This document shows, piece by piece, positions 3,621-63,943 of a DNA stretch of 64,000 nt. Location: assembly GCA_051294905.1 (NCBI GenBank), contig CM119372.1:33172001-33236000 (forward strand), written 5' to 3'. This stretch comes from Botryllus schlosseri. Lineage: Eukaryota. Under the pieces are notes generated by a model. It made no database searches. It was given only the letters and a program-made list of their open reading frames with translations, and was not told the origin of the DNA. Position numbers and translations under genes: made by a program. Each line of letters starts with the position of its first letter. The first letter of the stretch is position 1.

Positions 3621-4244
3621 TGTACATTAGGGTTGTTAAAAAAAAACTTTTTTTTCCAAATCTCACTCGCCTACTGACTAAATCGTCAGGTTGTCCAAGA
3701 AAACGATGCACACCAAATTTGACTCAATTCCAACCAGTCAAGGCCGTGCAATCTTGAATTGAAATTTTTAATTTATTAAAAAAAATTGAAAAAAAAAATT
3801 TCTCAAATTTTTCTGTCAACCCCATGAAATTGTTGAGCTGTCTTCAAAGACAATGCAAAACAAATTTGAGTCAATTCCGACTTGTAGAAGCGGAGTTATT
3901 CGCGTTTTTCGTTGATATTTGTCGGATTATCCTTGATCCGGGGATTATCAACGAAAAACTCAAATAGCTCCGCTTCTACAAGTCGGAATTGACTCAAATT
4001 TGTTTTGCATCGTCTTTGAAGACAGCCCAACAATTTCATGGGGTTGACAGAAAAATTTGAGAAATTTTTTTTTTCAATTTTTTTTAATAAATTAAAAATT
4101 TCAATTCAAGATTGCACGGCCTTGACTGGTTGGAATTGAGTCAAATTTGGTGTGCATCGTTTTCTTGGACAACCTGACGATTTAGTCAGTAGGCGAGTGA
4201 GATTTGGAAAAAAAAAAGGTTTTTTTGAACAACCCTACTGTACA
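3621..4244. mobile_element. Foldback/palindromic element, ~295-bp near-perfect arms; related half copy at about 1769-2060 and diverged relative at about 41600-41940
   Basis: 3621-3917 is the reverse complement of about 3946-4244, with a short spacer. Confidence 0.9.
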
Positions 4245-8189: not shown

Positions 8190-9090
8190 TATAGCTATGG
8201 GCATATCGGCGTTGGCCATTACCGCGCAACGACGCACCAAGACATATGATGCTTTAAGCTATGTAACATGCGACTCCAAGAAGTGTGCCAGAACGATCGG
8301 CAGCGAGAAAACTTTGGCCGAAAATGACTGCCCTTATGCTGACCGAAAACTTCGTTATGTATACAATATACTATTATAGGCTTAATTGTCCGTAGGCGCC
8401 TAAATTACTGGCGCCGAATGTTTACGTCTTGGCAATCTCAACCTCACAAGACAAATACCAGCTCGCAGAGAAAAATTATATGCCAGTGAAGAAATACCAA
8501 TTTGAAATCATGTGATCTTTTAGTTTAGTACGTTTGGGCGATTCTATATTTTTTGATATAGCAGACAGGAGATCACGAAGTCATACCAACGGGTCCACCC
8601 GTTCGAAGACGTTTAATTATTATTTACGGGCCCTACAGTTTTCAAGACACCTCAGTCAGCTCTACCGGTAAATCTGATTACGTGAGCAGAGAGGACAAGA
8701 AATTGATAGCAATATATATGCAATTCCTGATGTTATTGACCGATTTTATCATGAATTATCGAAAATTTACGCGCTTGACGCTGGCTCTCTAAACAGTACA
8801 ACTATAATTTCGTGGCCAAAGCGAACGACGTGATGGGGGTGGGGGTCGGTTTATCACCTTATGGTAGCCCAAGATTCAAATCTTTTTTTTGGGGGGGGGG
8901 GCTGACGAAGTGCCGTTTCATTCCTGCCAACGGGTATGCACCCGAAGATGTTTAATTATTATTATTGGGGAGTCATACCTTTTCAAACACACCTCACTCA
9001 GCTCTACTGTTAAATCTGATTGCGCGAGCAGACAGAGGATAAAATTTGACAGCAATATGTATCATGCCATTCCCGATCATATTCGATAGT
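8190..9090. repeat. Dispersed repeat, inverted relative to the copy at about 21130-22385
   Basis: gcgactccaagaagtgtgccagaacgatc and long downstream blocks match the reverse complement of 21130-22385. Confidence 0.85.
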
Positions 9091-10052: not shown

Positions 10053-12945
10053 ATTAACAGATAATTTCCTGTAGCCTCAACGACATAAACACTGCGTCCA
10101 AAATAATGGGATTTATAGTAAATAGTTCAATTTAGATTTATGCGCGACAAGAACCCCTAATCCTAAAATTCTTGCAATATATATATGTTCAACGCAGAGC
10201 CCGATTACGTAGAAAAATAGTGGCATCCATCACGACGATTCTGAAACGCTCACTACCGGTACTGGTTTGTTATCAACTCGCATCTCTCACCTATTAGTGG
10301 TCCAATTCATTTTCTACGAATTCCAGCAAGTATTTGCTTCTAAACGACTCGTAACCTCGACGATCTAACTGAAAACCAGATCAGAATTATCTTTCACACT
10401 GGATCAACGCACAGTTGAGTGTGGATGTTGATTGTTGTTGACAAACTGTCGCCAGCGAACAACCATCTAGGCTACGCATTGTAGATTGTATGTTACGTCA
10501 CAGAGGTGTACGGTAAAGGCTTTGAACGCCAGCTGTAGTCTTCAAGTAGTCTTCGGTCGCAACGAAAAATGTATTCAACAAGGTTGTAACCAAGTCACAA
10601 GGCTCCGAGTCACAAGTCAATCTCACATTTTATAGTTTTGACTCGAGTCATTTTCAATTCCTCACCGAATCAAGTCCTAGTCCAAGTCAGCGAACAGAGG
10701 GTTGAGTTCGAGTCATGACGTTATGACTCGAGTCCGAGTCCGAGTCATTGTGTTGACTGCTCGGTTTCCAATTCGATTCCAAATTCGATAATGCAGCAAT
10801 CAAGCAGTCAATCGACAACTGAAGCTATTGCATTTTACGACATTATGATCTTACTAATCTAATATAATTGATTTTCTAACATGAAATTAACCTAATGAAC
10901 ATGATGTTGAAAAAAAAAAACAGATTTTAAGGACAAAAACCCAGAAACCCAGGTGATGCTCGAAAAGCCCAGATCTGGGTGGAAAAACCCAGGAGTGGCA
11001 TCTCTGCACTACAGGAGAGCGTTAGCCCGACTGTGCCTCATTCATTAAAAATCTAGTCATTCATAAGCATCGTTAGAAAATACCAATAATCATTGAATGT
11101 TTCAATGTATGTACTGCCGTAGTGACCAGACATGGGGTAATCGCGATTAGTAATCGTAATCGATTACGACGATTACAGCATTTTCAAGTAATCGTAATCG
11201 CAATCGATTACATTCGAAAAAATGCCGAAGTAATCGTAATCGTGATCGTAATCGACTACTTCCCGTATCTAATCGATTCTTTGTGAAAGAACGATTACTT
11301 TTTATTTGTACATGGACTATGGCAGTGGTTCCCAATTGGGGAGGAATTCCCCCTTGGGGAGATTTTGCAATTTTTAGGGAGGAATTCCACTTTGGAACTG
11401 TAACGGATTTCCCAAATTGCTCATGTCCGAACTGTCATGTAGTCAACCCCCTTGTTTTTTTTTTAAAAACTAGTTCAGATGTGCTGCAGTTCGCAAGACA
11501 ATTGTAGGCCAGCGAAGGCCTCTCAATCAAATACATCCTAAGCGAGCAAATGTCGTGCCGAATCTATCACAACAAGGCCTCTGGTGAAAGTATTTACCTT
11601 GTATTTTCAAGTCAACATTTTCAGACAGTGACAAAATATTCCATGTCATCGACTCAAGTCGAAGAGATCGCTAGCCTTGTTTTATTTTTAGTGAACAGCT
11701 ACCCGATCAAAAAAGGCATGTTAAGCTTGGTGCAATGTTGCCGAAACGTTGGGCCAATTGTAAGTATAGTCCCCTTCGTTGCACTATGTTATTTCTTGAC
11801 ATCCCATCAGGATTGTCGGTATAGTGGAAAGATATTGGATTCGCCCAAACGTAGGCCTACCAGAAACAAATTTCCTTCGTGAACACGAATACAAATTGGT
11901 ATTTCTTTATGAGGCGCATCATTTTCCTCTGCTGTTCGCATCTGTACAAAGGACACTTCTATATTAAAATCGGATATCAACTCGCATTAAAACCGCCCAT
12001 AGCGAGAAGAAAATTTCAAGAATAATTCACACCTCTCAATATTTCGTTGAGGTTAGCTAACTACGGTATTTGCTGGAAATCTATCTCCTCGCAAAGCTTG
12101 GTGTTTCTGAGAGCCCGAAGTCGTTTTTAAAGCGCCTCGGTCTAGGCAGTGGTGGGCCATTGCACGTCAATGCAATATGCCCATTCATATCAGCAAATTC
12201 TTCCACCATGGAATGATATTACCATCGCCGAGGCGGTATCAGCTACTTCCAACTGAAAGACTTTGGAATTAGGCTCAGTTGTAAGCCAACTATCTCAATT
12301 GACTCCAACAAAACAGAACTATTGTCGGTTTCTCACTACATGGACTGTTATTATATATGTATCTGATTATCTGATACATATTATGTTAGTAGCACAACTA
12401 ACTTTGCTACAACCTTAAAGATTTTCAAGTACAAACTGAATGATCAAAAATGACCATAAGGCTCACCAGCTCATTCTTGTGTTTTACAATTCTTGGATAT
12501 GGTGGTGCTATTTGTGTCAATTGGGTTTACACCATAGTATTTTGCTTTTTGTCTTAAAGCAGCCCCATACATGGGTTTCTCAAATAGCGGGTTGACATTC
12601 CTTCTTCTTAAGAATTATGTAATTGTGTAATAATGAGTATGCATAAATACGCTGCTTAGAATGTTATAATCCAATGTTCATGCGCTTACCATACAATTTA
12701 TTTTCGGGTCGGGCAAAAAAATATTCGAGAACCTCTGCTTTGTAGACTATATATGCTTTGCGACTTCAGTTTATATCTGTTCCATTTTATTCAACAAAAT
12801 AACTGCAACAACACAACTGGTACATCGTTTATAATTGTCAATTATCAGAGAGGATGAGATCTAGTCGGTATTAGTGGTATTTTATCGTTTAAAAACACCA
12901 ACAGATAGTGATGAGATTACAGAATAGGAAGGTATTGGAATGACA

Positions 12946-13513
12946 CAGGGTTGTAACCAACTTACAAGGCTCCAAGTCACAAGTCAATCTCACTTTTATA
13001 TTTTTGACTCGGGTCAAGTCGAGTCATTTTCAATTCCCACCGAGTCAAGTCCGAGTCCAAGTCAGCGAACAGAGGATCGAGTCCGAGTCATGGTATTATG
13101 ACTCGAGTCCGAGTCCAAGTCATTGTGTTGACTGATCAGTTTCCAGTTAAAGTCATCCTAAACCCACTTTTTTTAACTCTGTTTGGTGATACTGAATGGT
13201 TCGCATTTATAATATATCAAACTTCATCACTTTTAACAGTTTCTGGCCGCATTTTCAAGCACCAGTACCAACAAACGAAATCCCAATAATGTGTTGGCTT
13301 CGAAATTACAATGAAATGTCAGTCTCGGCCGTCTGAATCTCGAGTCAATGACTTGCTTCAAGTCATGCGCAATGACTCGAGTCCAAGTCGAGTCAATACA
13401 CAGATTGACTCGAGTCGAGTCGAGTCATTTCCGTATTTTTAGAAAATGACTCGAGTCGAGTCGAGTCATCCGAAAATCGTGACTCGAGTCTGACTCGAGT
13501 CATTACAACCCTG
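12946..13513. mobile_element. hAT-type MITE, CAGGGTTGTAA family
   Basis: TIR cagggttgtaa/ttacaaccctg; perfect TSD GAATGACA; partial copy at about 10579-10770. Confidence 0.9.
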
Positions 13514-16242
13514 GAATGACATGAAGTCTTTCAACCAGACAGCTATTTGGTTAAGGTCATAATATATCTAGAAAGGGTTTGTGTTGAATCCAGTCCAATC
13601 TGGTGTAGTTTTGGTCGCTAAATGTCGAAAATAATAATGATAGAACCATTGTAGTTGGTGATAAGGATTGAATCATAATTTCAGCACTTCCATCACGAGG
13701 ACAAGACGCCAAGAAATAGCATCATTTTCGTCGGCTAACAGCTCTTTGATATCCATATGGTTGATTTAAGTTGATATGGATACTTTCACCATCCTCGTTG
13801 TACGTCCAGAGACGAAATTAGGTCCATGTTTAGTCCAGTCCCATAGTAAAGTATATAACAACAAAACAGATTTGGGTCGAGTTACCTTTGTCGCCACCGC
13901 GAGTTCAAAATGAAGTGGAACAGCCCCATTGCACATCGTTAAGTTATGTTCATGTCCTGTCGATAAGCTTGTTAATCAGCCTTACGCCGGTTCGCACCAC
14001 GGAGCTTTATAAACACCCCACATCCAGTGGTTTCCAACCTTTTATGGTAGCGACTCAATCTCCAATTTGAAAATGTTCCGTGGCCCAGATCAAAATTTTA
14101 CGAGCTGATTACTAAAAGAAGTCAGCACCTTTGCCCAGACTTACTCACGGGCTATTTTGTGACTGATTACGTTCAACATATTCGCAAACCCATAATGAAG
14201 GCAAACGACCCCTCCCCTCGTTTGGAGTCACTATATTTGAATAAAGCATTTAAACGGCCTTAACGATCTCTAGGAATATACCGTTCTCCTATAATTGCGA
14301 TTACAATTTGGCTTATTCCAGTAAACGAAGGTCGTTTTTATTTATATTTTATGGCAGTTTTTGCGAGGGTGGTAAGTCTCCATATTAAAATCATTAAATG
14401 TGAATGTAAGTCGCGCGCAGCGCGAAGAAAAATATCATATATCAGCATAAATATTCCCAAACAATATTGTTTTTATGCTGATTTACGAAAAAAATCATGA
14501 GCCTACGTCAAAATTCCGGACATTTGGCATATTTTAGAAATTCCTCCCAGACGCTAGTTTGAACAGTGAAATTCCGGACATGTCCGGGAAATTCCGGACG
14601 TATGGCAACCCTAGATAGCCTACATACTATGGACCAAACGTTATATCGCAATTCGTAGTTCAGATTTGGAATCTTCGGTACTGTCACCCGCTTATACCAT
14701 GTTAGCGTCACATTTTCCTAAATAAGTTGTCTCATGATGCAATCGTATATATGTTTCGAATACGCAACGCCTCTAGGCACAAGTCGCAAGTTCAAGTACG
14801 CAAAATATAAATCAGAAATGACTATAGACCTATTCGTCGGTCCGTAAGGTGCTTTTACCTCCAAAATCTTATATCACTGTGGAGGAGTGACGTAGCCTAA
14901 GCCATCTATCTGCTAGTCATCTTACGGTAGACACCGTTAAGCATGTGAATTATACTGAACGATAACCGTCTCGAGTTTCACGAATATCTATGGGCACTAT
15001 AGCAGTGGCACACGAAGAGCGCGTGCGTGGCCAAGTTTACTGAGACTGCCTAGCACAGACAGCAAGCTAAGCTCTCTAAACCGGCATTTGTATACCTATT
15101 TAGCTATGGCCAACGAAGTATATTCGGAATCTCAGCAACGACCAAGTTCGATTGTCAGTTTTCGTAAATTTCCCACGCGGGAAAATGCTCGGAGCTGTAG
15201 ACAATCTGCGATTGTAACCCTCTGAGATTTGTTGATTGGCGGTGCTGCGAAAAATTAGACTTGTGAAAAGCATATAGAGTAGCTATGAGATTCGTTTGTA
15301 TTGGATGTATTCGAGGTGCGCAGTAATGCAGGGAATGTGAAAAGAAAGTGCAATGAGGACTGCCGTTTACCATAGACAAGTGTTTAGTCCGTGCGTTGCA
15401 GGCCTTATGGACGTAAGCTCAACTGCGGCCCAGTCCGTTATCTCACCTCGCTGTATTTGATTATATTTATAAAGCAGTATGCAACCAAGGTGTCATTTAT
15501 ACTAGTACTACCCATTTAAGTTATTGGCTATCCAGAAGCATTATATAATGAGGCTAAATCTAATCGACATCAAGTATTGTATACGTTGGCAAGTATTATA
15601 CTACATACCTTGGCGCAGTATCGCGATTGCATTACTTTCACGTGCAAGACGGGGCTTGGTAACGCAAGATTTTTCAACGATAGCAATCGGTAATCAAAAT
15701 CACTAATCAGTGTTGAATCTGTTGATACTAAGTCATAATAGGCACACTGTCGATAGGCGGGTATTCGTGTGTGAAGCACGCTCGGATGCGGTTTGCACAG
15801 GAGGCATGGCAGAACCTTAGTAGGGGACTTGGGGTGAAATTGGTCACTCAAGTACTCGACTGATAATGCAGTCACTCGAATAGAATAGGCTAATTCTGCA
15901 CCAACTTATAGCTGGATTTTATTGGAAAGTCAATTGACTGCAAAAGAATGACGGCACAAAAAAGTTGATTGCATATCAGGCATTGAAGTGGCGTAGGCCT
16001 ACTAGTCCGACCAAGAATCGAAATGGTATAGTTTCAGATATATTAGCAAGCGGAATGGTTGCAAACCAACTCCGTAAACTGTACAGAAGCCATCTAATTT
16101 GAAGTGAGAATGCTTTCTTACAGTTTCTTGTAGTTAATGTAAATACGTTGTTACCTTTGCGAGCCTACTGAATTTTGGATGCATCAGGGAATCGTTACAG
16201 TCGAAGATTGGTTCAAATTGCTTGATATTGACACGCAGTGTG

Positions 16243-18441
16243 ATGGATGACGGAGACAGTACAAGTCAAAATTTTGGAAATATGGATGACGTGGTTCTAG
16301 AGTGTTTAGTCAGCCCCTCCCCTGTTGCTACTCTTCCATGGCTGCAGGATTGCAGTTTGAATAAATCGCACTCACTACCAGCCAAACGAGACGTAAACGC
16401 GAATGATAACTATGAGGCATTTCGGATTGCTTTGAAGAAAGCTAACGGACGAAGAGAGCTGATTGAAGCTAATAGGGCCAGTACAAATCATGAATTCTCG
16501 AAAGCTTTCCAAGCACTCTGTGATGAGATCTCGCGTACGAGTGCTTTTGATACGATTACAACAAAAAAGCGAGGCCAGCATGTACCTGATGTTTGCGTTG
16601 ATCGCTCAGACATTGGCAACCCGCCATTATCCGAATTGAATAACCGCGAACTAGTTCCTGGTCAGTCGAAAACCTCTCACGGTGACTTTAACATGAATTG
16701 CCTCGATCAAACTACGAAACTAGAAAGTGTGATAGCACCGAACGCGTTATTCCAAAACTACACACAAAATGATGCTATCTCGAAGAATGGCGGAAGCTTT
16801 GGACACGAGTTATTGTCTTCCGAAAAGATCGACCCTTCTGCAGTATCCAGGAGCGCACCTAAAATCCGGGATAGGCTCGTTCAATCTCAAAATCCAGCGA
16901 GTCTGATTGCGCCGAAAGTAGTACAGGATTTATCCGAAAACACCGGAAGAAACGACCTCTTTCCGAAGAATGACGCTAGCTTAGCACAAGGGATTGATGC
17001 TTCAAAGACTGGTCCCTTCACAGAATCTATTGGTGCAACTAAGATACCGAATTGTGTCGATCAAGCTACAGGTGTAATTGCACCAAAAGCATCAAAGGCT
17101 TTATACAAAGACAACAGTAGAAACGATCTCTTTATAAGGAATGGAGCTAGCTTTGCACAACCTATCGATGCAACGAAGAAATCATATTCCGCCCACTGTA
17201 ACGACGCAGCTATCGTCCCGACATGTGGTCGCAATAGAACGTACGTTTCGGTCATGGAGACTTACCACGATCCGAGACTGGATACATCGCGACCTGACAG
17301 TGAAGTTCCTACTCTTAGCCCACCATGCGACGACACACTTATAATTGTACCGACAGCGGCTTCCAATCGTCTATCGACTCGTGATCATGATGCTAGCCAA
17401 TCCCCGAATACCGCTGCTGGATGTGCCTCAAATGAACCTACCCAGCCCCCAAAATCTCCCTCGAAGACATCGGAATATTTTAGCATTAATCTGCCTTCCA
17501 ACATAGCAATGAGTGTTCGTGCACCTGACGCTCAGTTGCTCTCTAGTGAAATGACCGGCAAGGGAAATGCTTGTATTCCACAAAATGAAACATCCTCATA
17601 CGGTGTGAAGCTCGCTACAGGTACTTCGCACGAGTGTCGACCCGGCCGACCGCGCAGCGATACCAGTGCCATTCACTCAACGCAAAATGAATTCGTGGAG
17701 GTGGAAATCAAAGTGGAATCAGCATCCAGAGAGTCCGCTATTCCTAGATCCCGCCAACATTCATCAGTGCTGTCCACGTACGATTCCTTCGCAGGGTGTA
17801 TTGCTGACGACATGTCGCATCAATCCACGCCTCACAAATCGCCAAGAAGTAACATGGCGGCGTCCGAAAACCCACTACTTGCCAACCAAGCTCACAACAC
17901 TGCGATAATACTGCAGCAGCCCAAGATTGGAAACAACCTCAACCCACCGGACAAGGAAAACGAGAGACCGTGCACCGTCGTCACAATGAAATACGAGGCC
18001 GCGTCGTCCGCAACGGCCGTGGATTACAAAGGTCCAAAACTGTACAAAGAGTTCACCTACAAAATCAACAAGCACATCATCAACAACGCAATTTGTCACA
18101 ATTGCTTGCCCGGGAAAGTGAACGAAAATACCCGCACCTCGGTAATCTCGACGTTGGAAGCCTCCGAATGCAGGCACTTCGTGATATTATTTCGCGACAC
18201 TCAATGCAAATACCGCGCGTTATATTCCTACGACTTGGATGAGAACAAATTGTCGAAATTAATCGGCAACGGTCCGAGCACAATTGCGCCGTCCTCGATC
18301 GACTATATGTTCAAGTATAACTCTGGACGCAAGTCGTTCACGAAGCTGTCGTCCAAGACGCTGTCGTTGAGCATTGACGCCGTTGCGATTAAGAACGCGC
18401 TGTGGCAGACTGTGAAACGTGGAAATACAGTCAGAAGATGA
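16243..18441 (+). CDS. Intronless CAMSAP/Patronin-like protein: long low-complexity region plus C-terminal CKK domain (about 18031-18420); no CH domain
   Basis: 732-codon ORF from the first ATG. The C-terminus GPKLYKE..NKHIINNAICHNCLPGKVNE..FVILFRD..CKYRALYSYD..GPSTI..MFKYNSGRKSFTKLSSKTLSLSIDAVAI..LWQ matches the CAMSAP CKK consensus. Candidate AATAAA at 19093. Confidence 0.88.
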   Translation: MDDGDSTSQNFGNMDDVVLECLVSPSPVATLPWLQDCSLNKSHSLPAKRDVNANDNYEAFRIALKKANGRRELIEANRASTNHEFSKAFQALCDEISRTSAFDTITTKKRGQHVPDVCVDRSDIGNPPLSELNNRELVPGQSKTSHGDFNMNCLDQTTKLESVIAPNALFQNYTQNDAISKNGGSFGHELLSSEKIDPSAVSRSAPKIRDRLVQSQNPASLIAPKVVQDLSENTGRNDLFPKNDASLAQGIDASKTGPFTESIGATKIPNCVDQATGVIAPKASKALYKDNSRNDLFIRNGASFAQPIDATKKSYSAHCNDAAIVPTCGRNRTYVSVMETYHDPRLDTSRPDSEVPTLSPPCDDTLIIVPTAASNRLSTRDHDASQSPNTAAGCASNEPTQPPKSPSKTSEYFSINLPSNIAMSVRAPDAQLLSSEMTGKGNACIPQNETSSYGVKLATGTSHECRPGRPRSDTSAIHSTQNEFVEVEIKVESASRESAIPRSRQHSSVLSTYDSFAGCIADDMSHQSTPHKSPRSNMAASENPLLANQAHNTAIILQQPKIGNNLNPPDKENERPCTVVTMKYEAASSATAVDYKGPKLYKEFTYKINKHIINNAICHNCLPGKVNENTRTSVISTLEASECRHFVILFRDTQCKYRALYSYDLDENKLSKLIGNGPSTIAPSSIDYMFKYNSGRKSFTKLSSKTLSLSIDAVAIKNALWQTVKRGNTVRR
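16729..17230 (+). repeat. Three ~57-58-aa coding repeats within the CKK protein
   Basis: Units start at 16729 (VIAPN..QNDAISKNGGSF), 16903 (LIAPK..RNDLFPKNDASLAQGIDASK) and 17074 (VIAPK..RNDLFIRNGASFAQPIDATK). Confidence 0.8.
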
Positions 18442-19820
18442 TTCAAATAGCAGAATTATAACCTCTACGCTAAGGCATGTAGTTAAGTGCGCTTGTGAGA
18501 GTGTTTGAATACCGTCTTTCGAAATCTTTCGCAACTGACTCTATGGTGAAAAAAGTCGCACAGTTTCGAGTATTTCGTGTTTTGCAGTCCCTTTCGTTAT
18601 ATTCCAACCTTTTTGAAAATATCTTCCAACAAGTTGTCCTGTTGGAAAATGCATTTTGTATTCGTTGCACCCGTCTTTTTCCCGATAAATATGATTAGAT
18701 TACAATGACTTGACTTGATTTCTTCGTACGATGGTCAGGAAATTGATTTTGATTTCCGATACAAATACCTTTCTGATATTGTTGGGTACCGACATCATTA
18801 CCTCGTGTCGTAGTGGGAGCAATTTCTGCAATCATTTATTTTGATTCCTTGAAGTCGATTCAGAAAGCCATCTATAAATAGCTTCGGCACCTTGTATTGG
18901 GAATGTGAATGTAAGTAGTAAATGCAAGACAGCTTTTCCAGTATTTCAACGACTGTGGTAAAACACTATACGTGAGAGCTATTTCTTATAGATTTCGTAG
19001 GTCGCAATTTCGAATTTCTTTTCGCTGATATTTTGCGATGATTTTTGAAGTAAAATCGTTCACCTCTTTCATTCGTGTCACGTAAAATGCACAATAAAAT
19101 ACAAACTGCGACAGTGGCGGCTCGTGACAATATCGGGTGGCGGGGCAAGGGGTGTACGCGATTTTTATTGTCTAAATGACGTCACAATAGTGTATTCCGA
19201 CGTGAAAATGTGACTTCGTGGTGACCACACACAGTTTGTATGGGGTATAGACATATTACGCATGGCTAACAAGGCGTACGTATTTCAAATTATTCGAAAG
19301 AAAATATGAAGGACGGTAGTTCATACCTGCATATGCATATTTTAACGTTTGTATCAGTGAGCCTACTGCGCGCGGCGTGATTTCAAATGTTCAATGACGA
19401 GTTCATTGAAATCTGGAATACCCAGAAACGCATCTAACGCATCGAGCCTAATTACTGCAGCAAAGTTGATAGAAAGCGATTTTTCAACTATAGGAATTTT
19501 AAAAGTTCACTAGTGGTTACTACTTTTGAAAAATATGTATTGGAATATAAACAAGTCAACTCGAGTCGAGCAAAGTCGACCATCGGGTGATATCGAGACA
19601 CCGTTTGCAGTAGACCACATGCTTCAGGCCACGATACCCAATTTCCGTCGAACTGGACACACTGCCCCTGGCACTAGCAGTGTTAAAGTGTATAACAAGG
19701 CGTCCTTAGACTTGCATATACGTCAGCCATTCATTTTTGTCGAAATACGTTGGAAAAATACAAGAGTGCGCTTTCCTCCCGCGTACGATTAGATCAATGG
19801 ATAATTTCCAGTCTGATAAG

Positions 19821-19993
19821 CAATGTTCCCTCTAATCTGCGCACGTGCGCAAATGCGCAGTGCTGATACGGTCTCTGCGCACAAAAAATCCGAAGTGATG
19901 ACCTTTTTTTAGTCGTTACGCACTGTTGTCCAAGGGTCTGGGCAGTGAGTTGGTGATTGTGCGCAGACTCGTCAAAAATTAGAGGGAATATTG
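19821..19993. mobile_element. Small MITE (CAATGTTCCCTCTAA TIR); second copy at 5313-5459
   Basis: Perfect TSD CTGATAAG. Confidence 0.85.
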
Positions 19994-20421
19994 CTGATAA
20001 GGACCGAGTTTTGCGTAAAAACACTGAATTTTGCGTAAAATATATTGAGGAATAGACTGATCAATCATTTAGCTGTTAGCCGTCATTGAAAACGAACTAG
20101 CTATCGCGCTTGACAGGGGGTTGTAAGCAAATGGTCTGAAGGCCACAATTTCACGGTGAAATTGACATTGGACAATATAAAATAAAGTAAATATTTGAAT
20201 GCAAACCGAGAATCTTAGTAAACTGTTTCATGAGATCATAATCTCATCACCTATCTCAGTATGAAACACAGTTAAATTTATTAGCACAGACCAACACTGG
20301 CTTTTGCGTGAAATCCACGATGCGGTAGTTAGGCCTACGTGTCAGATCAGCGTAGGCTACATCTCTACCATACTCGACCTCGATAACGAAATTACTGTCC
20401 TAATCTTTGAGTGTCAACCTC

Positions 20422-20754
20422 GGGACTTGGCACAGCGTTCGATACTAGAATCAAGACATACCGTCCAAAAATTTATGACCGATGAAGGTATGGAGCATCG
20501 TTAGAGTGAATAGAGACCGATAGCGGTTTTGCGTAAAATCTGTTAGCGATAAATAGCGAGTCAGCTCTCACTCGATTAAGGTAACGAAATGAACGCCCAC
20601 ATAGTTCAGTGATACACTTGAGACTTGGTATAGCGTTCGATACTAACAGTAAGACTTACTATGCCCATTGCCCAATGTTACGACCGATCTCGGTATGGAA
20701 CATCGCGAAAATCAATGGAGACCAATACCCGGCTTTGAGTAAAATCTGCTTGCG
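20422..20754. repeat. Degenerate direct duplication, period ~200 bp
   Basis: gacttgg..agcgttcgatacta..gaccgat..ggtatgga.catcg..gagacc..gtaaaatctg occurs twice. Confidence 0.7.
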
Positions 20755-21920
20755 TTTATGATACTTGACGGATCAGCACACAGACAACTTTGGAAACGAA
20801 ATTAATACCCTAAACTTCAAGTAGCAACCCTAAAACTTTGTAGCAGTGTTAAATACCACCATTACACATAACATACCTATAGTTTCAAGAATTATCATTT
20901 TGCGAAACAGAGCCGTAACAACACCTCGTCAGCCCCCCCCCAAACGTTGGCCTTCGGCCCCCAAATATGATGATAAACCGAGCTTCTGGGGGGCGGGGGC
21001 TGCACCCCCAGACCCCCTTAGGTTATACACTGCTTATCGCTACTTAACATCTACATTGGGGCCGTCAGCTGAATCAGCTTTTCACACCTGCACGCGCGAA
21101 ACGCGAGGAAATTCTATAATTCACGATTGAATCGGTCAATATGATCGGGAATAGCATACATAGCCTATTGCTACCAATTTTCATCCTCTCTCTGCTCACG
21201 TATTCAGATTAATAGGTAGAGCTGAGTGATATGTGCTTGAAAAGGTAGGACCCCTCAATAATAATGAAACATCTTCGGGCGTATAGGCTACCCGTTGGCA
21301 GGAACGAAACAGCACTTCGTCAGCCCCCCCAAAAAAACTTGGGTCTTGGGCTCCAATAGGGTGATAAACCTACCCCCAATCACGTTGTTCGCTTTTGCCA
21401 CGCACAGACGTATTTCAGTGAGCCAGCGCGAAGCGCGCAAATTTTCGATAATTCATGATAAAATCGGTCAATAAGAACGGGAATTGCATATATATTGCTA
21501 TCAATTTCTTGTCCTCTCTGCTCACGTAATCAGATTTACCGGTAGAGCTGAGTGAGGTGTTATGGAAACTGTAGGGCCCGTTGGTAACATATGTTATTTC
21601 GTGACCTCCTGTCTGCTATATCAAAAATATAGAATCGCCCAAACGTAGGCTACTAAACTAAAAGACGCACACGATTTCAAATTGGTATTTCTTCACTGGC
21701 ATATAATATTTCCCTGCGGGATGGTATTTGTCTTGTGAGGTTCAGATTGCCAAGACAGGAACATTCGGCGCCAGCAATTTAGGCGCCTAATTAAACCTAA
21801 ATGTATTTTGTAGATATAGGATAACGAAGTTTTCGGTCAGCATAAGTAGGACAGTCCTTTTCGGCCAAGGTATTCTCGCTGTCGATCGTTCTGGCACACT
21901 TCTTGGAGTCGCATGTTACA

Positions 21921-22040
21921 TAGGCTTACCATATTTTGGAAATCAAAAAAGAGGACACTTTTTCAGAAATTTGCAAGTTGCAGAACCGGAGAGAAATTCT
22001 CAAAATTCGGTTAATTTCTCCCCACTTTGTGATCGGTTGA

Positions 22041-24881: not shown

Positions 24882-53446
<28,565 letters not shown>

Positions 53447-56032
53447 GGCGACAAGTCCGGCACGTCGATAACTAAATTCTCCGATTTTGCAGTAATTTAT
53501 ACGAGTTACAATGTCGGAACTAGTCGGAGGAAATAGACACTGCCAAAACAACATCGTTTTTTAAACCAGTTCACTATTGTCATGGAACTCTTGACCTTGG
53601 CTTATCGCATGTGTTCAAGTTAATAATGTAGCCTCCAAAATTTACAGCAATCACAAAGAATCGGACTTTTCAACCCACATTTACAGATCAGGCAAGTTGG
53701 TAAAACCCCCGTCTTACACCAATATTTTCTCAGCATTCCACTTCTACAGTCAATCCCCAGACCCATCACAAATGTAATACGCGCCAATGTGTCTTGATAA
53801 TGCCGAAAATACCAGATTTATAGATACAAGCTGTGATATCCCACACGACAACAGTTGTACCAACAGTTATCGCACAACCGACAACTGGCAATTGAAGGAT
53901 TTTCAGGGAGAGAAGACTCGAAATTTCGTAACCTCGTGAGTTGGAACAGCAGATCAGTGCTTAGTGATCTGTAACATGACTCGGCAGAATTTTACGCCAA
54001 AGGCCTTCCCTTACCATTTACTCGCAAATATGACACCCAGATCAGAGTCATGTACAAAATAAAAATACTTCGTAATAAATCAGTCGTTTTAAGGAGTGAG
54101 GGATGTAAAAGATCCTCAAACCAGAAAAATATTGCATGCAAACAAGTGTACATATTTTTCAGTAGGCCTAGCCTTCCATTCAACTTCGCCGGTCATCAAT
54201 GTTAAATTATCCGAGTCGCAACACTAGGTGAGGAATTATCGCAATTTCAATCATAGTTTTTCATCACATCTCACTTTCAGCAACATAACAAATCTCACAT
54301 TATCATATAAAGACAGTAAATTACCAGATTATTCATTGAAATTAGTTTTTTGCCATTCATCACAAATACTAGAATACTGTGTGAATGACATAAGTTTCAA
54401 GTATCCCCATAGGATAGCGGCAATTAGTGTGCTAAGGTCAAAGTACAAAATTCAAGAGTACGTACTCACGTACTCTACCTACTCGCTAAGACATGGACTC
54501 AACTGATAATGCAGCTCAGACTAGTTTCAATTAGAGATAGCCCTCCAGTACTACATTGAAATGGTGTGCAGCAAATTGATATTTGCAGTCACTACACAGG
54601 CCTACACGTTCTATATAAGTATATCTCGATACTGTAATGAATAAATACCATATGCCAGTTATTCTAAGAATAGTAGTTAATTAAAACGCAGTTCAAATAA
54701 ATAAAATATATTCAGGCAGGTCTTAGAATCGGCAGCTGTGAAGCGACATCCAAAAATAATACAGTGCAGGTAATTTGATAGAGATTGCCAAAAGATAATA
54801 CCCAAGACGACCCATATTGACGCAAGTAAGATCGGATACCTTTACCCGTACCAGAATAAACGCTGGGTAATGACAGCATGTTCAATGTCTCAGGGGTCAT
54901 TTCACGGTATCCGATGTTGTCACATGATGACAGATTGCAGACCACTAAAAATACCACACTATCTAACTGTATTTTGCAATGCCACCACTATGGCTAATGG
55001 TCTACATCAATTCTAGACTAGGATGATAAGATAAGTCAGCATATTAGTCTGTGAATTTGCAAGTAATACTGAGTTCTCAAACCACCTAACCTTCAATTGA
55101 ATTTCTTACATAGGCAAGTGAAGGATAAGGCAAACAGTTCTAGAGAATTCAGAATAGGTACCCAGTAAAAATACTACCCTACGTTCTTATCTATATCTTA
55201 TCTTTGAATGTCCACTGAATATCTGAAAATAATGATGGACCACCTCGAAACTGTCTGTTTTGTTCCACCATGCACCTTTCATCAACTTTAATCACGAGTC
55301 AATTAGGTCAAGGTGGCAATATAAACATGAAAATTCAATATTTTTGTATCAGGGTTACTCTGGGGCACAACATATAAAATGGCATAAATGCCAATTACAA
55401 TTGTTAATTATGACGAAGTACAAAAATCTATTGCAGCATCACAAATGTAAGGGACCTCTTTGACACACGCAAAACATCAAAAATTTCTCCCATCATTAAG
55501 TAAATGTAGGCCTACGTCACTGAATGAAGTTGGGTTTCGGGGCTGCTACCGCGTTTCAGATCGACGAGTGGGTTTGATATGGCACACATACTGCCCCTGG
55601 CAGTAGAAATCATGGGCCGTGTAACGGTAGGCCTACCTCAAATTGCACCTTCACGAGTCAACTACATTATGATATCAAAGGGTAAGGAGAAGCCGGCCAA
55701 GACCTTGACTCGTACCAACACCCACGAGTAACCCCGTAACCAAGAGAGCGCATTGACCAAGTGACATGGGAAGCCTTTCAAATAGTTTGATTTGTGTTCA
55801 TGAGGGGCAATTCCCGATGCAGTGCTTTTACCAAAGAATCACCAAACATAAATACAAAATTAGAGTAACTTATAAACTTTGAACACCCGGTTGGCATGAA
55901 AATCAATTTGTTATAAATGCACCAATGGGCCCAGACTGACAAAGGTGGCTGTTTTCACAGTAAATACAGTGTCACTGAAGGGCATACTGCATAATGACAC
56001 AATGAAAAGGAAAATTGCGTGGGACGTTGCCA

Positions 56033-56583
56033 CAGGGTTGTAACCAAGTCACTAGGCTCCGAGTCACAAGTTAATCCCACTTTTATAGTTTTGACTCGAG
56101 TCCAGTCGGGTCATTTTCAATTCACCACAGAGTAAAGTACGAGTCCAAGTCAACAATCAGAGGGTCAAGTCCGAGTCATGGTATTATGACTCGAGTCCGA
56201 GTCAAAGTCATTGTGTTAACCGTTCAGTTCCGAGTTAATGTCATGTGAAACCCACTTTGTATAACTCTGCTCGGTGATATCGAATGCTTCGCATTCATAA
56301 AATACTAATTTCCCTCACTTTTAGCAGTTTCTGGTCGCATTTTCAAGTAGGCTACCAGTACCAATAGACGAAATCCCAATAGTGTGGTTACTTTTCTATT
56401 CTTCGAAATGACAATGAAATGTCGGTCTTGGCCGTCAGAGTCTCGAGTCATATGACTTGGTTCGAGTCATACGAAATGACTCGAGTCTAAGTCGAGTCAA
56501 TACACAGATTGACTCGAGTCACTTGGATCGTATTTTGAGATGACTCGAATCATTGGAAAACCGTGACTCTCATTACAACCCTG
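56033..56583. mobile_element. hAT-type MITE, CAGGGTTGTAA family
   Basis: TIRs intact; TSD cgttgcca/tgttgcca. Confidence 0.88.
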
Positions 56584-58997
56584 TGTTGCCACCAATTCCA
56601 CTCCAGCAAGGGTGGCCTGTAGCAACATAGGGTTGTAGAATTTGTCTGTTTTAGCTAGCCATGCCTTCATGATACGACAATCACACGGTCAGTGCAAAAT
56701 GAGATCCAAACGTGAAACAGGAAGGTTTTGTAGCAAAATGACCTTATAGAAATACCGTAGTAGCTTTTACTCTCGGAGGATTTTGGCTCGGGTATATCGT
56801 CCGAAGGGGCCCACAGGATCAGAGAGGTGGGAAACGAGTGACGTAGCAAGTCTGCTAATAACAAGTCTACCACAACAATGGTAATGTTGGTCCTGTTTAT
56901 CGTTTTATATAGTAAAAACTAGGAATGGTGTGGATGGATGTTCACGTTCACGTTCTGTGTGTGAACCTCAGAAATTCAGAGGTTCAAGTTCACAAACGAA
57001 CCTTTGTAGGTTCTGCACTGTGAACCTTTTCCATAAATCACAATTTTTTACCTCATTACAAGCATTTCAACTTGCGACCACATAAAATAAATCAACACTA
57101 AACGAGCACAGAAATTGACAATCTTAAAAATTTTACTTGATTTGTTAGAAAAGTTTGCTTAAAATATTCAGCTTTGCATTTGTGAATATTTGGTGACTCT
57201 CTGCTGTGAGCTTGACCCAACCTCAAGAAATAAATGAAACTAGGAGTAGGTAGTCAGTGAACTATGAATAACCTGTTTAGACCTATGGGATAATATCGGT
57301 AGCAAGCATAGAAACCCCTTGTACACTCAACTCAATATGTAGCGTCAGAAGTCGAATACATTGTTCGGTCTGGCCTAAAAAGGTCCGCGTTCACACGAAC
57401 CTGAACCTGTTGGGGGTTCACAGCATCCCCAGCAAGGACCATTGTAATGTAATAATGAAATGATAAAATAACCATCAGCAATGCCACCTTTGCTCTCCCA
57501 TAAATCGCTATGGGCCGTGATGATCATGTTTGGCAAAAGAGATTTTCTTGTCAGAGCCTTTACTCTTATCTCAGAAATTCAGACACATTTTCACAAACAA
57601 TAAATCATTGGGAATTCATTGTTTCAGTATCAATTGACATGGGCAACACATGATTTGATCGACAACCACTATAACAATAAGTAATAACCATAACAAAGCA
57701 GACGACTAAAACAAGCTATACCAACCTATCGCAAAGTTCCAAAAGAGCAAACAAAATTCACTGAGATTATTCTGACAATCCTCAAGACATCAACTACTAT
57801 AGCTAGACTAGAGGCTAATAGTCAACCAGAGGTGGCTAAAGTAGTCAATGTTGCTACTAAAGTAGAAGAAATGTTGGTAAATTTGCACTCAACTGCCAGT
57901 TAACATTTTCAAGTAAAAAAAATGAGTATTCTAGGCCTAGTTTTTCCTAGTAAACTTGGAACATCCAAGTAGAGGTATAAGTAGGCTAAATCAGAACAAC
58001 TTGTGCGCTCTGCCCTCTGGTCGCCATCCATAAGATTACCATAGTTCTCAATTCAACCGACTAGTAATAGGCATTAAAAAGGAGTGACGTTACTCCCCCA
58101 GGCCTGATTGGAATCGCTGGCCTTTTTGCCTGATATATCAGGTGAGCAGCGATGATTTTCCAAGTTAAAGTAATTTAGTAAAAAATATTTAAAAAATGAA
58201 ATATAGTGTGAGCACAGGACACCGATTCCGAACAGGCATTACATACGACATTACTTCACATATAGATGGCATGAGTATGACTATAAACGCAATACTACAT
58301 ACAGAATTGTCACACAAAGATATACGTAATGGCATGGATTATTAGGCTATCGTCATTTCATCAAGATGTTCATCAAATTAAAAGATCATAAGATTGCGAT
58401 ATAATGAAAAGAGAGGAAGGTGAATATACGACTTGAAGCGTCTTTCAACCAGACACCCACCTTGCTGTTGCACTGTGGAGCATGTAAATCAGAGGCAAAA
58501 TAAGAGGGCACTATTTAGCTAATAGTTCTTGGAACAGGTATTATCACCTAAACTAGAACAACACTTCTTCACACAATCATCACTTACGGCGCTTACCTAA
58601 TTGTGATACTATGGTAGTGGTATGGTGATGTATGTCCTTGACATAGTACGATGACAAGACGAAATCCAGACACATACTCACAGAATACAGTGATATAGTT
58701 CATTTGATGCCCATCCGACACCTCACGAAACTCACAGAGAATGAGGAGATCCTGTATAATCCATTGAGAAAAATTATTCGTTCGAGAGATCTTCGAAGAA
58801 TACCAATATCATGACATTGATACATCTGGCTCGGCTAACAAACCTTGAAAAACGTTCTCATATGCGAAAAAAACCCAGTAGGCTAAGGATCAGCAGGCAG
58901 CATGCGTGAAGCCTACGATCGCTACTGATGACGAGGCAACATTACACCGGCTCATCGTATTGCAGTCATTGAGCCATGAACAGCTGTAAGTCGTAAC

Positions 58998-62732: not shown

Positions 62733-63217
62733 CAGGGCTGTAATTGCAATGAGTCGAGTTGCGATTTCTGGTGACTCAAGTCTTTTTCTCAAAATTTGGA
62801 AATGACTCGACTCGAGTCAATCTATGTAATGACTCGGACAAGTCATATGAATCGAGACTCGGACGGCTAAGACCGATAACACACTAGTGTAACCACACTA
62901 TTGGTATTTCGTCTAATGGTAGCAGTACTTGAAAATGCGACCAGAAACTGTTAAAGGTGAGAAAAATCAGTAGCCTATATTATAAATGTGAACCGTTGAT
63001 ATCACCGAACAGAGTTATAAAAACTGGATTAAACAAGAATTTAGCTGGAAACTGAGCAGTCAACGCAGTGGTTGAACTTAGTCATAACACGATGACTCGG
63101 ACTCGACCCTATACTCGCCAACTTGGACTTGACTCGGTGGGTAATTGGAAATGACTCGACTTGACTCGAGTCAAAACTATATAAGTGAGATTGACTTGTG
63201 ACTTGGCTACAACCCTG
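62733..63217. mobile_element. hAT-type MITE, CAGGGTTGTAA family, reverse orientation
   Basis: TSD gaaacacc/gaaacatc. Confidence 0.85.
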
Positions 63218-63434
63218 GAAACATCTAAAGTACATACTTGAGTACTTTTCAGAAATTATACTTTCACATCAATTAGTTTGGACAAGACTTGTAAATCACT
63301 GCTTGTACCAGAGTGGAAATACATGGCGTTACTACTACTTCTACTCCATTGATGACACAACAAATACTTCTACTTGAGTGCTGAAAACAACTACGTTTTT
63401 GACCATCTCTGTTCAGAAGCATGCACCTACGACT

Positions 63435-63943
63435 CAGGGTTGTAACCAAGTCACAAGTCAATCTCAATTTTATAGTTTTGACTCGAGTCAATTTGAGTCA
63501 TTTTCAATTCACCACCGAGTCAAGTCCGAGTCCAAGTCATTGTGTTGACGCTCAAGTTTCCAGTTAAAGCCTTGTTAACCCACTTGTTATAACTGTGTTT
63601 GGTGATATCGAATGGTTCTCAATTCTCATTCAAAATATAGCCTACTAATTTTCCTCACTTTTAGCAGTTTCTGGTCGCATTTTCGAATACAAGTACCAAT
63701 AGATGAATTCCCAATAGTGTGGTCACTTTACTATACTTCGAAATTGCAATGAAATGTTGGTCTCGAGTCATATGACTTGGTTCGAGTCATGCGCAATGAC
63801 TCGAGTCCGAGTCGAGTCAATATACAGATTGACTCGAGTAGAGTCAAATCATTTCCTAATTTTGCGAAAATGACTCGAGTCAAGTCAAGTCATAAGAAAA
63901 TCGGGTCACGAGTCGAGTCATGACTCGATTCATTACAACCCTG
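63435..63943. mobile_element. hAT-type MITE, CAGGGTTGTAA family
   Basis: Perfect TSD CTACGACT. Confidence 0.9.

Follow-up and report, generated by a model that had tools for sequence, protein, structure and literature searches.

We describe a 732-codon open reading frame (ORF) in a 64,000-nt stretch of the Botryllus schlosseri genome (contig CM119372.1; this whole stretch is hereafter the window), which we read as a transcribed, intronless ascidian version of the microtubule minus-end gene CAMSAP, encoding a short CC1 region, a long low-complexity linker and an intact CKK domain. With confidence only slightly above even, we regard it as a likely retrocopy of the 3' half of a CAMSAP messenger RNA (mRNA), whose product would be expected to rely on its CKK for all binding to microtubules and to lack anchoring and nucleating activity; on the sequence comparisons given below, the gene is likely a relaxed CAMSAP retrogene. 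An earlier, sequence-only reading of this DNA had noted 732 uninterrupted codons at 16243–18441 (+), and these do translate without a stop. A scan of the frames in the window gave a stop-to-stop length of 767 codons here (16138–18441), the runner-up having 179. The features on which the assignment rests are as follows.

16243..18441, + strand: single-exon CAMSAP-derived ORF, 732 aa (translation, frame scan, Pfam; gapless X1 and X12 contigs)
18034..18390, + strand: complete CKK domain, residues 598–716 (Pfam, intron comparison, AlphaFold model)
18049..18069, + strand: EFTYKIN, the changed extension at the N-terminus of the CKK (I608 replaces an S found in 27 of 27 other rows)

The Pfam CAMSAP_CKK profile (PF08683) matched over its full length (positions 1–119) at residues 598–716 (E 8.8e-45), and this match, together with that of the predicted fold, bore out the earlier claim of a complete CKK. 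An AlphaFold model of the last 150 residues, built from 16 sequences, had a mean predicted local distance difference test score (pLDDT) of 82.7, and its CKK matched that of human CAMSAP1 (6qus_I) with a root-mean-square deviation (rmsd) of 1.0 Å; the closest solved relatives of the domain were mouse and human CAMSAP CKKs. The divergent EFTYKIN and the retained asparagine of the sequence-only reading were likewise recovered, the latter as N615 (18085–18087). By an inferred offset between the two numberings, N615, R651 and R658 are the equivalents of human N1492, R1528 and R1535, all retained, and these human residues matter for minus-end selectivity and affinity (PMC6868217). According to the same source, the N-terminal extension of the CKK touches tubulin and tunes affinity without defining end specificity. 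Full lists of CKK contacts (supplements of PMC6868217; Atherton 2017) could shift which substitutions matter.

In the CKK phylogeny that the earlier reading had proposed, a tree of 28 rows, the window CKK was sister to two Logan proteins, P0002 and P0003 (93/92), next to Styela and nested among tunicate CAMSAPs. It retains 40 of 47 highly conserved columns. Membership of the CAMSAP/Patronin family is indicated by the C-terminal CKK and by descent from an animal CAMSAP, as seen in the tunicate nesting, a CC1 remnant and a linker motif. By these comparisons the protein is a CAMSAP by descent and by its CKK, not a canonical full-length CAMSAP.

The remainder of the protein departs from the canonical architecture in several ways. 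CAMSAP_CKK was Pfam's only match in the 732-aa protein, in which no CH domain was found. A tblastn search of the window with the first 350 aa of 98 long CAMSAPs gave no CH-like exon (best E 0.007, minus strand), nor did a CH profile run over its six frames (best E 0.97), and neither CH nor post-CH motifs were found by tblastn or profile in the 16 kb upstream of the ORF. The claim that both a CH domain and upstream CAMSAP exons are missing thus holds within the 64-kb window. The faint CC1-like trace previously seen at RRELIEANR (residues 70–78, 16450–16476) is above chance: residues 32–80 scored 9.2 bits against a two-sequence profile of the nearest relatives, which 0 of 1,000 body shuffles reached, though Pfam CAMSAP_CC1 misses this protein, as it misses those of Styela, Ciona and Phallusia. 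P0002 and Styela have a longer CC1 helix. Modelled from its sequence alone, the full protein had helices at residues 53–98 (pLDDT 55–66) and a body otherwise free of them, which is only a hint, as the model had a pLDDT of 33 and failed on the CKK. The N-terminus had been described as remodelled; we find instead a truncated, shortened CC1 region and no new domain, the bigger change being the loss of CC3.

16336..16536, + strand: shortened CC1 remnant, residues 32–98 (profile match, helices of the single-sequence model)
16708..17223, + strand: three in-frame copies of a unit of ~57 codons, residues 156–327 (blastn, three-way alignment; none seen in relatives)
17770..17847, + strand: tunicate CAMSAP linker motif YDSF...STP, residues 510–535, normally 5' of CC3 (blastp, profile)
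17848..18030, + strand: short spacer in place of the CC3 helix and its linker, 125–171 aa shorter (motif-to-CKK spacing)

The CC3 loss and the 57-codon triplication are, on sequence comparison, features beyond those in the first reading. The repeat unit was detected by blastn (73% over 103 nt, E 2e-12, spacing 171 nt), while protein self-blast was silent and the repeat region had no usable ESM Atlas match. The linker motif matched P0002 by blastp (56% over 34 aa) and scored 23.1 bits with its profile (0 of 1,000 shuffles). From this motif to the CKK there are 84 aa, as against 209–255 aa in 9 of 9 tunicate proteins, and the short spacing, together with the lack of a CC3 profile match in the window protein, points to deletion of CC3. 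Since that profile was trained on the same nine tunicates and missed 41 of 251 proteins of at least 400 aa, the spacing is the stronger argument. P0002 retains both CC1 and CC3, so the loss of CC3 would be specific to the lineage of the window gene. Along the frame, GC content at third codon positions (GC3) rises from ~0.43 to 0.66 near residue 541, ~50 codons upstream of the CKK (17863–18438, +).

Transcription was assessed with sequencing runs, 4 of the 24 listed, mapped over 13500–21100 with small-share rows left out.

16179..19111, + strand: minimal unspliced transcript span (X1 contig; putative strand, from the ORF and the polyadenylation signal)
19093..19098, + strand: polyadenylation signal (AATAAA), with the X1 contig ending 13 nt further on
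16113..16137, + strand: two putative acceptor-like sites (ending at 16123 and 16133), then an in-frame TAA at 16135–16137 (sequence)

A single 2,933-nt contig from run X1 aligned over its full length to 16179–19111, with 13 differences and 0 gaps, and a single 2,762-nt contig from X12 aligned over its full length to 16297–19058 with 0 differences, covering the ORF from 16297. Depth upstream was 0 across 14770–16039 in all four runs, an RNA-like rather than a DNA-like pattern of coverage. No other uniquely covered exon appeared in the aligned region, and 0 of the 15 joints listed (of 18) touch the ORF. Raw RNA reads were thin across 16294–19087 (10 of 11 bins in X20, 3 of 11 in X24), and contig depths of 13 and 169 offer no basis for ranking expression. 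The AATAAA is the sole copy within 18401–19300. By the contigs and the thin raw RNA reads, the gene is transcribed with its frame intact, as a functional retrogene would be.

We also considered whether the ORF could be a very large terminal exon, belonging to a longer CAMSAP gene whose CH exons are upstream of the window, a possibility that the sequence-only reading had raised against itself. The frame is open back to 16138, the 5' ends of the contigs vary (16179 in X1, 16297 in X12), another AG, at 16163, sits 3' of the in-frame TAA, and large exons are known in CAMSAP genes (an 821-codon match in the related locus L002), all of which would suit such an exon. We nevertheless find it highly improbable: no aligned read or contig joins upstream exons to the ORF; the X1 contig extends unspliced 64 nt 5' of the ATG, without a loose end; the TAG/CAG acceptor-like sites at 16123 and 16133 precede the in-frame TAA, so that splicing there could not lengthen the frame; CH and post-CH motifs were not found in the 16 kb upstream; and the absence of CC3 would remain. 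At the 5' end of the transcript, an out-of-frame ATG at 16179 opens a 23-codon frame (16179–16250) that ends just past the main ATG, and could dampen translation or favour Met14.

The argument for retroposition comes from the introns of relatives, among ten related loci taken from metagenome contigs. At the CKK of L006, which falls with the tunicates once spliced, there are three GT-AG introns, located in its first Gly, after the second helix and in the G-x-G-P turn, and the window frame is uninterrupted across all three positions (18031/32, 18150/51 and 18271/72, at G597, S636/T637 and G677), as a retrocopy would be. The second of these introns (read directly) and the first (judged from a tblastn break) are also present in the fish-like L002. 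Truncation at the 5' end is a hallmark of retrocopies made by long interspersed nuclear elements (LINEs) (PMC5470649).

Several observations weigh against this reading, and concern transcription, origin and selection in turn. X1 and X12 are absent from the record as RNA, X12 is possibly the window's own source, and among the 24 listed rows no run on record as RNA is a holder of the ORF sequence; moreover, raw reads run in both directions, so the strand of the transcript is inferred. With regard to origin, no A tract follows 19111, and no convincing target-site duplication was found, the longest flanking repeat being 10 nt and in implausible places. Poly(A) remnants and target-site duplications are expected to erode in old retrocopies. 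Of the retroposed CKK protein with a disordered body that had been proposed, the intronless, CH-less, transcribed and largely unstructured character stands; the retroposition itself, for which no scars were found, is a probable reading, and the suggested germline or ciliary expression and altered microtubule specificity are conjectural.

The absence of introns is itself open to another account. Four proteins from ENA contigs of 85 kb–1.7 Mb (P0005, P0008, P0011 and P0012) have uninterrupted, CH-less frames of 861–954 aa, which span from just after the CH region through CC3 and the CKK and all begin 20–30 residues before one common motif; they form a single clade (100/97) near Phallusia, and the DNA behind them had no match in the genome-contig or viral-contig collections. 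Their sequences suggest that some tunicate CAMSAP genes were already intronless over the CH-to-CKK stretch, whether through one huge terminal exon left by intron loss or through another, independent family of CH-less retrogenes, and this weakens the step from intronless to retrocopy. P0002 (876 aa, from a Logan contig of 7,372 nt) also lacks a CH domain as called, its Styela match starts at residue 771, and it is without two motifs found in 7 of 7 other tunicate proteins checked. Possible readings of it are a short isoform, a paralogue and an incomplete gene model; loss of the CH domain may predate the window gene, or may be a gene-calling artefact.

The gene could accordingly be a DNA-level duplicate or descendant of an already intronless, CH-less CAMSAP (a very large terminal exon, or a short paralogue of older date that it has in common with P0002) that lost CC3 later. 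We think this rather unlikely. The four long ENA frames, the start of the CH-less P0002 near the same point as the window protein and the failure to find scars of retroposition speak for it, whereas the ENA group branches with Phallusia and not with the window gene, L006 represents an intron-bearing state inside the tunicates, the window holds no CAMSAP-like flanking exons, and P0002 may represent an incomplete gene model from a transcript contig.

With regard to rate and selection, the window branch measured 0.59 compared with 0.10–0.15 for the sister tips; it was flagged as long, and three other placements were unrejected by the approximately unbiased (AU) test (p-AU 0.30, 0.23 and 0.087). 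A relative rate test with Styela as outgroup counted 25 vs 6 unique changes (p 0.0009; six such tests spanned 0.0009–0.064), by which the CKK appears to evolve at about four times the rate of its sister. The window CKK is altered at eleven well-conserved positions, including S→I608 and M→S685, both invariant in 27 of 27 other rows, and changes on the branch fell in 7 of 46 conserved vs 18 of 59 variable columns (p 0.10, not significant). Between the X1 allele and the window there are 8 nonsynonymous and 2 synonymous differences (ratio of nonsynonymous to synonymous polymorphism, pN/pS, 1.18), with 3 of the 8 nonsynonymous ones inside the CKK; for this one allele and its 10 sites a neutral model fits (p 0.70) and an omega of ≤0.2 is rejected (p 0.013). 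Set against this neutrality, the frame is open where ~7 stops would be expected under neutral change of at least 17% of amino acids (P ~0.0009, a rough extrapolation from the CKK), every length change preserved the reading frame, and GC3 is 0.67 in the CKK and 0.72 in a neighbouring SERCA gene, with 0.44 in the body and 0.43 in the flank. The signals of selection on the protein, as read from these comparisons, are mixed, and ambiguous between constraint and neutrality. An untranscribed frame with neutral dN/dS had been named in the sequence-only reading as a result that would refute it: the frame proved to be transcribed, while the single allele comparison is neutral-looking.

These data leave some room for a transcribed retrocopy that is turning into a pseudogene, its frame still open and its protein unselected and without function. 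We consider this unlikely, though it deserves to be taken seriously. It would account for the pN/pS of 1.18 in the one allele pair, for changes at CKK sites that are otherwise invariant (conserved columns being avoided only weakly and non-significantly), for a body GC3 equal to flank GC, for the thin raw-read coverage in X20 and X24 and for the upstream ATG at 16179, which overlaps the start out of frame. It fits poorly with 732 codons that stay open in two haplotypes despite a large deletion, a triplication and ~7 expected stops, and with a CKK that keeps 40 of 47 conserved columns, a high GC3 and a confident fold.

Quite improbable, in our view, is that the gene is the sole CAMSAP of the species, whether as a retrogene that replaced its parent or as a gene stripped in place of its introns, CH and CC3. 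In Ciona, replacement of parents by their retrogenes is said to be relatively frequent (PMC5803294, citing Kim et al. 2014), and placement of the window CKK inside the P0002/P0003 group was unrejected. Orphan retrogenes are, however, reported to be well conserved (PMC5470649), whereas the window gene is accelerated ~fourfold; CC3 is missing here though retained by 9 of 9 tunicate relatives; and full CH-CKK proteins exist in Styela, Ciona intestinalis and Phallusia.

Under the retrocopy reading that we favour, a 5'-truncated or naturally short CAMSAP transcript would have been reverse transcribed and inserted downstream of SERCA, where it would have gained a promoter. Under relaxed selection, CC3 and a portion of CC1 would later have been deleted in frame and the 57-codon unit triplicated, a full-length parent being assumed elsewhere in the genome. 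Work on the human and mouse proteins predicts that the CKK, together with its basic tail, would still be able to insert between protofilaments as a wedge and might follow minus ends, and that without CC3 there would be few asters and poor stabilisation; the changed N-terminal extension would reduce or shift affinity. Asters of mouse CAMSAP2 require at least CC3 plus CKK, the CKK by itself forms none, and a delta-CC3 protein nucleates with fewer asters (PMC9239687). To stabilise microtubules, CAMSAP3 depends on a second region that binds the lattice in addition to its CKK, while CAMSAP1 only tracks ends (PMC9998277), and according to a table in a review the C-terminal coiled-coil region serves localisation and the binding of partners (PMC8927778). 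By analogy with these data on CC3 and the CKK, the product would bind microtubules only through a flexibly tethered CKK, probably as a weak tracker of ends or binder of the lattice that is poor in anchoring and nucleation.

A bolder extension, which we hold to be doubtful, is that intronless, CH-less CAMSAPs arose more than once in tunicates (the window gene and, separately, the ENA group) and that the window copy is a fast-evolving, positively selected, CKK-only protein, which would sit on minus ends or the lattice, fail to stabilise them and so compete with full-length CAMSAP in a limited set of cells, for instance the germline. Germline expression is described as a general tendency among retrogenes (PMC5470649). 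If functional, the gene would be a natural counterpart of the delta-CH, delta-CC3 constructs used in vitro, with the tubulin-touching extension changed and the key residues kept, and would offer a test both of the requirements of the CKK core for preferring minus ends and of the use, by an animal, of a CAMSAP that neither anchors nor nucleates. An invertebrate chordate would also have gained a CAMSAP duplicate specific to its lineage, and we found no published case of one in the open-licence literature. If decaying, it would be an ordinary transcribed retrocopy.

The ORF lies tail to tail with a neighbouring gene.

24882..53560, − strand: multi-exon SERCA calcium pump, tail to tail with the ORF (Pfam, translations, sequence)

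The SERCA pieces with Pfam matches sit in frames of at most 147 codons. Nesting of the ORF within SERCA was considered and rejected, as the putative last SERCA exon ends near 24882, 6.4 kb away. At that end (24882–25252, −) SERCA may have two alternative C-terminal tails, by read-through to FVEGMLSA and a stop or by splicing to a short last exon. No other gene was found upstream by Pfam in 208 of the 217 window frames of at least 66 aa (the nine overlapping the ORF were omitted), nor in 136 frames of 44–65 aa below 23500. Repeats include a near-perfect inverted repeat at 3638–4225 (290-nt arms, 96% complementary, 8 nt apart) and a dispersed family resembling miniature inverted-repeat transposable elements, with GACTCGAGTC-rich ends and copies in both orientations (10578–10789, 12941–13490, 31935–32368, 56028–56594 and 62889–63943). 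Related inverted elements at 8259–9057 and 21166–21923 lie ~7 and 3 kb from the CKK gene, not at its ends.

Relatives were sought in protein collections, from which the window sequence itself was absent. The nearest named proteins were from Styela clava, Ciona and Phallusia. No orthologue of the copy was found in word-index searches with the ORF C-terminus (one match among 143 candidates of near length, one among 104 shorter ones), which are of low sensitivity and weak as evidence, and a search with P0002 among longer lengths returned Styela and vertebrates only among the best 120 of 202. An uninterrupted CKK-coding stretch (L001:158-925, equal to P0067) occurs on a 1,857-nt contig that is non-tunicate by its best matches and may be a transcript.

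The nearest named relative is the CAMSAP1-B-like protein of Styela clava (XP_039269189, P0004, 1,722 aa), with 62% identity over the CKK region, which has in common with the window protein the CC1 region, the YD(S/T)F...STP motif and the C-terminal CKK. It has two CH-type domains and CC3, whereas the window protein has neither, is 990 aa shorter and carries a private 57-codon repeat. The Logan proteins of the sister group, P0002 (876 aa) and the fragments P0003 and P0153, are closer (66–67% identity over the CKK region); P0002 has a full CC1, CC3 and an EPSLKSN extension, and a CKK branch several times shorter than that of the window gene. Compared with the CKKs of vertebrate CAMSAP1–3 and Drosophila Patronin (6qus, 5m50, 1ugj), the modelled domain has the same fold (rmsd 0.8–1.3 Å to cryo-EM and crystal chains), in a protein that is without CH and CC3, is encoded by a single exon and has Ile at the equivalent of S1485. 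The CKK of Naegleria gruberi (6quy) diverges in its tubulin-contacting termini and loops and is without minus-end specificity (PMC6868217); the window CKK resembles it in having such divergent contacts, but is nearer to the animal CKKs (E 1e-38 vs 2e-12; TM-score, TMt, 0.94–0.97 vs 0.85). Finally, like chordate retrogenes such as the intronless genes of Ciona and SYCP1 of amphioxus and Ciona (PMC5803294), the window gene has a single exon and intron-bearing relatives; unlike SYCP1 and its kind, it is a partial copy that has lost domains.

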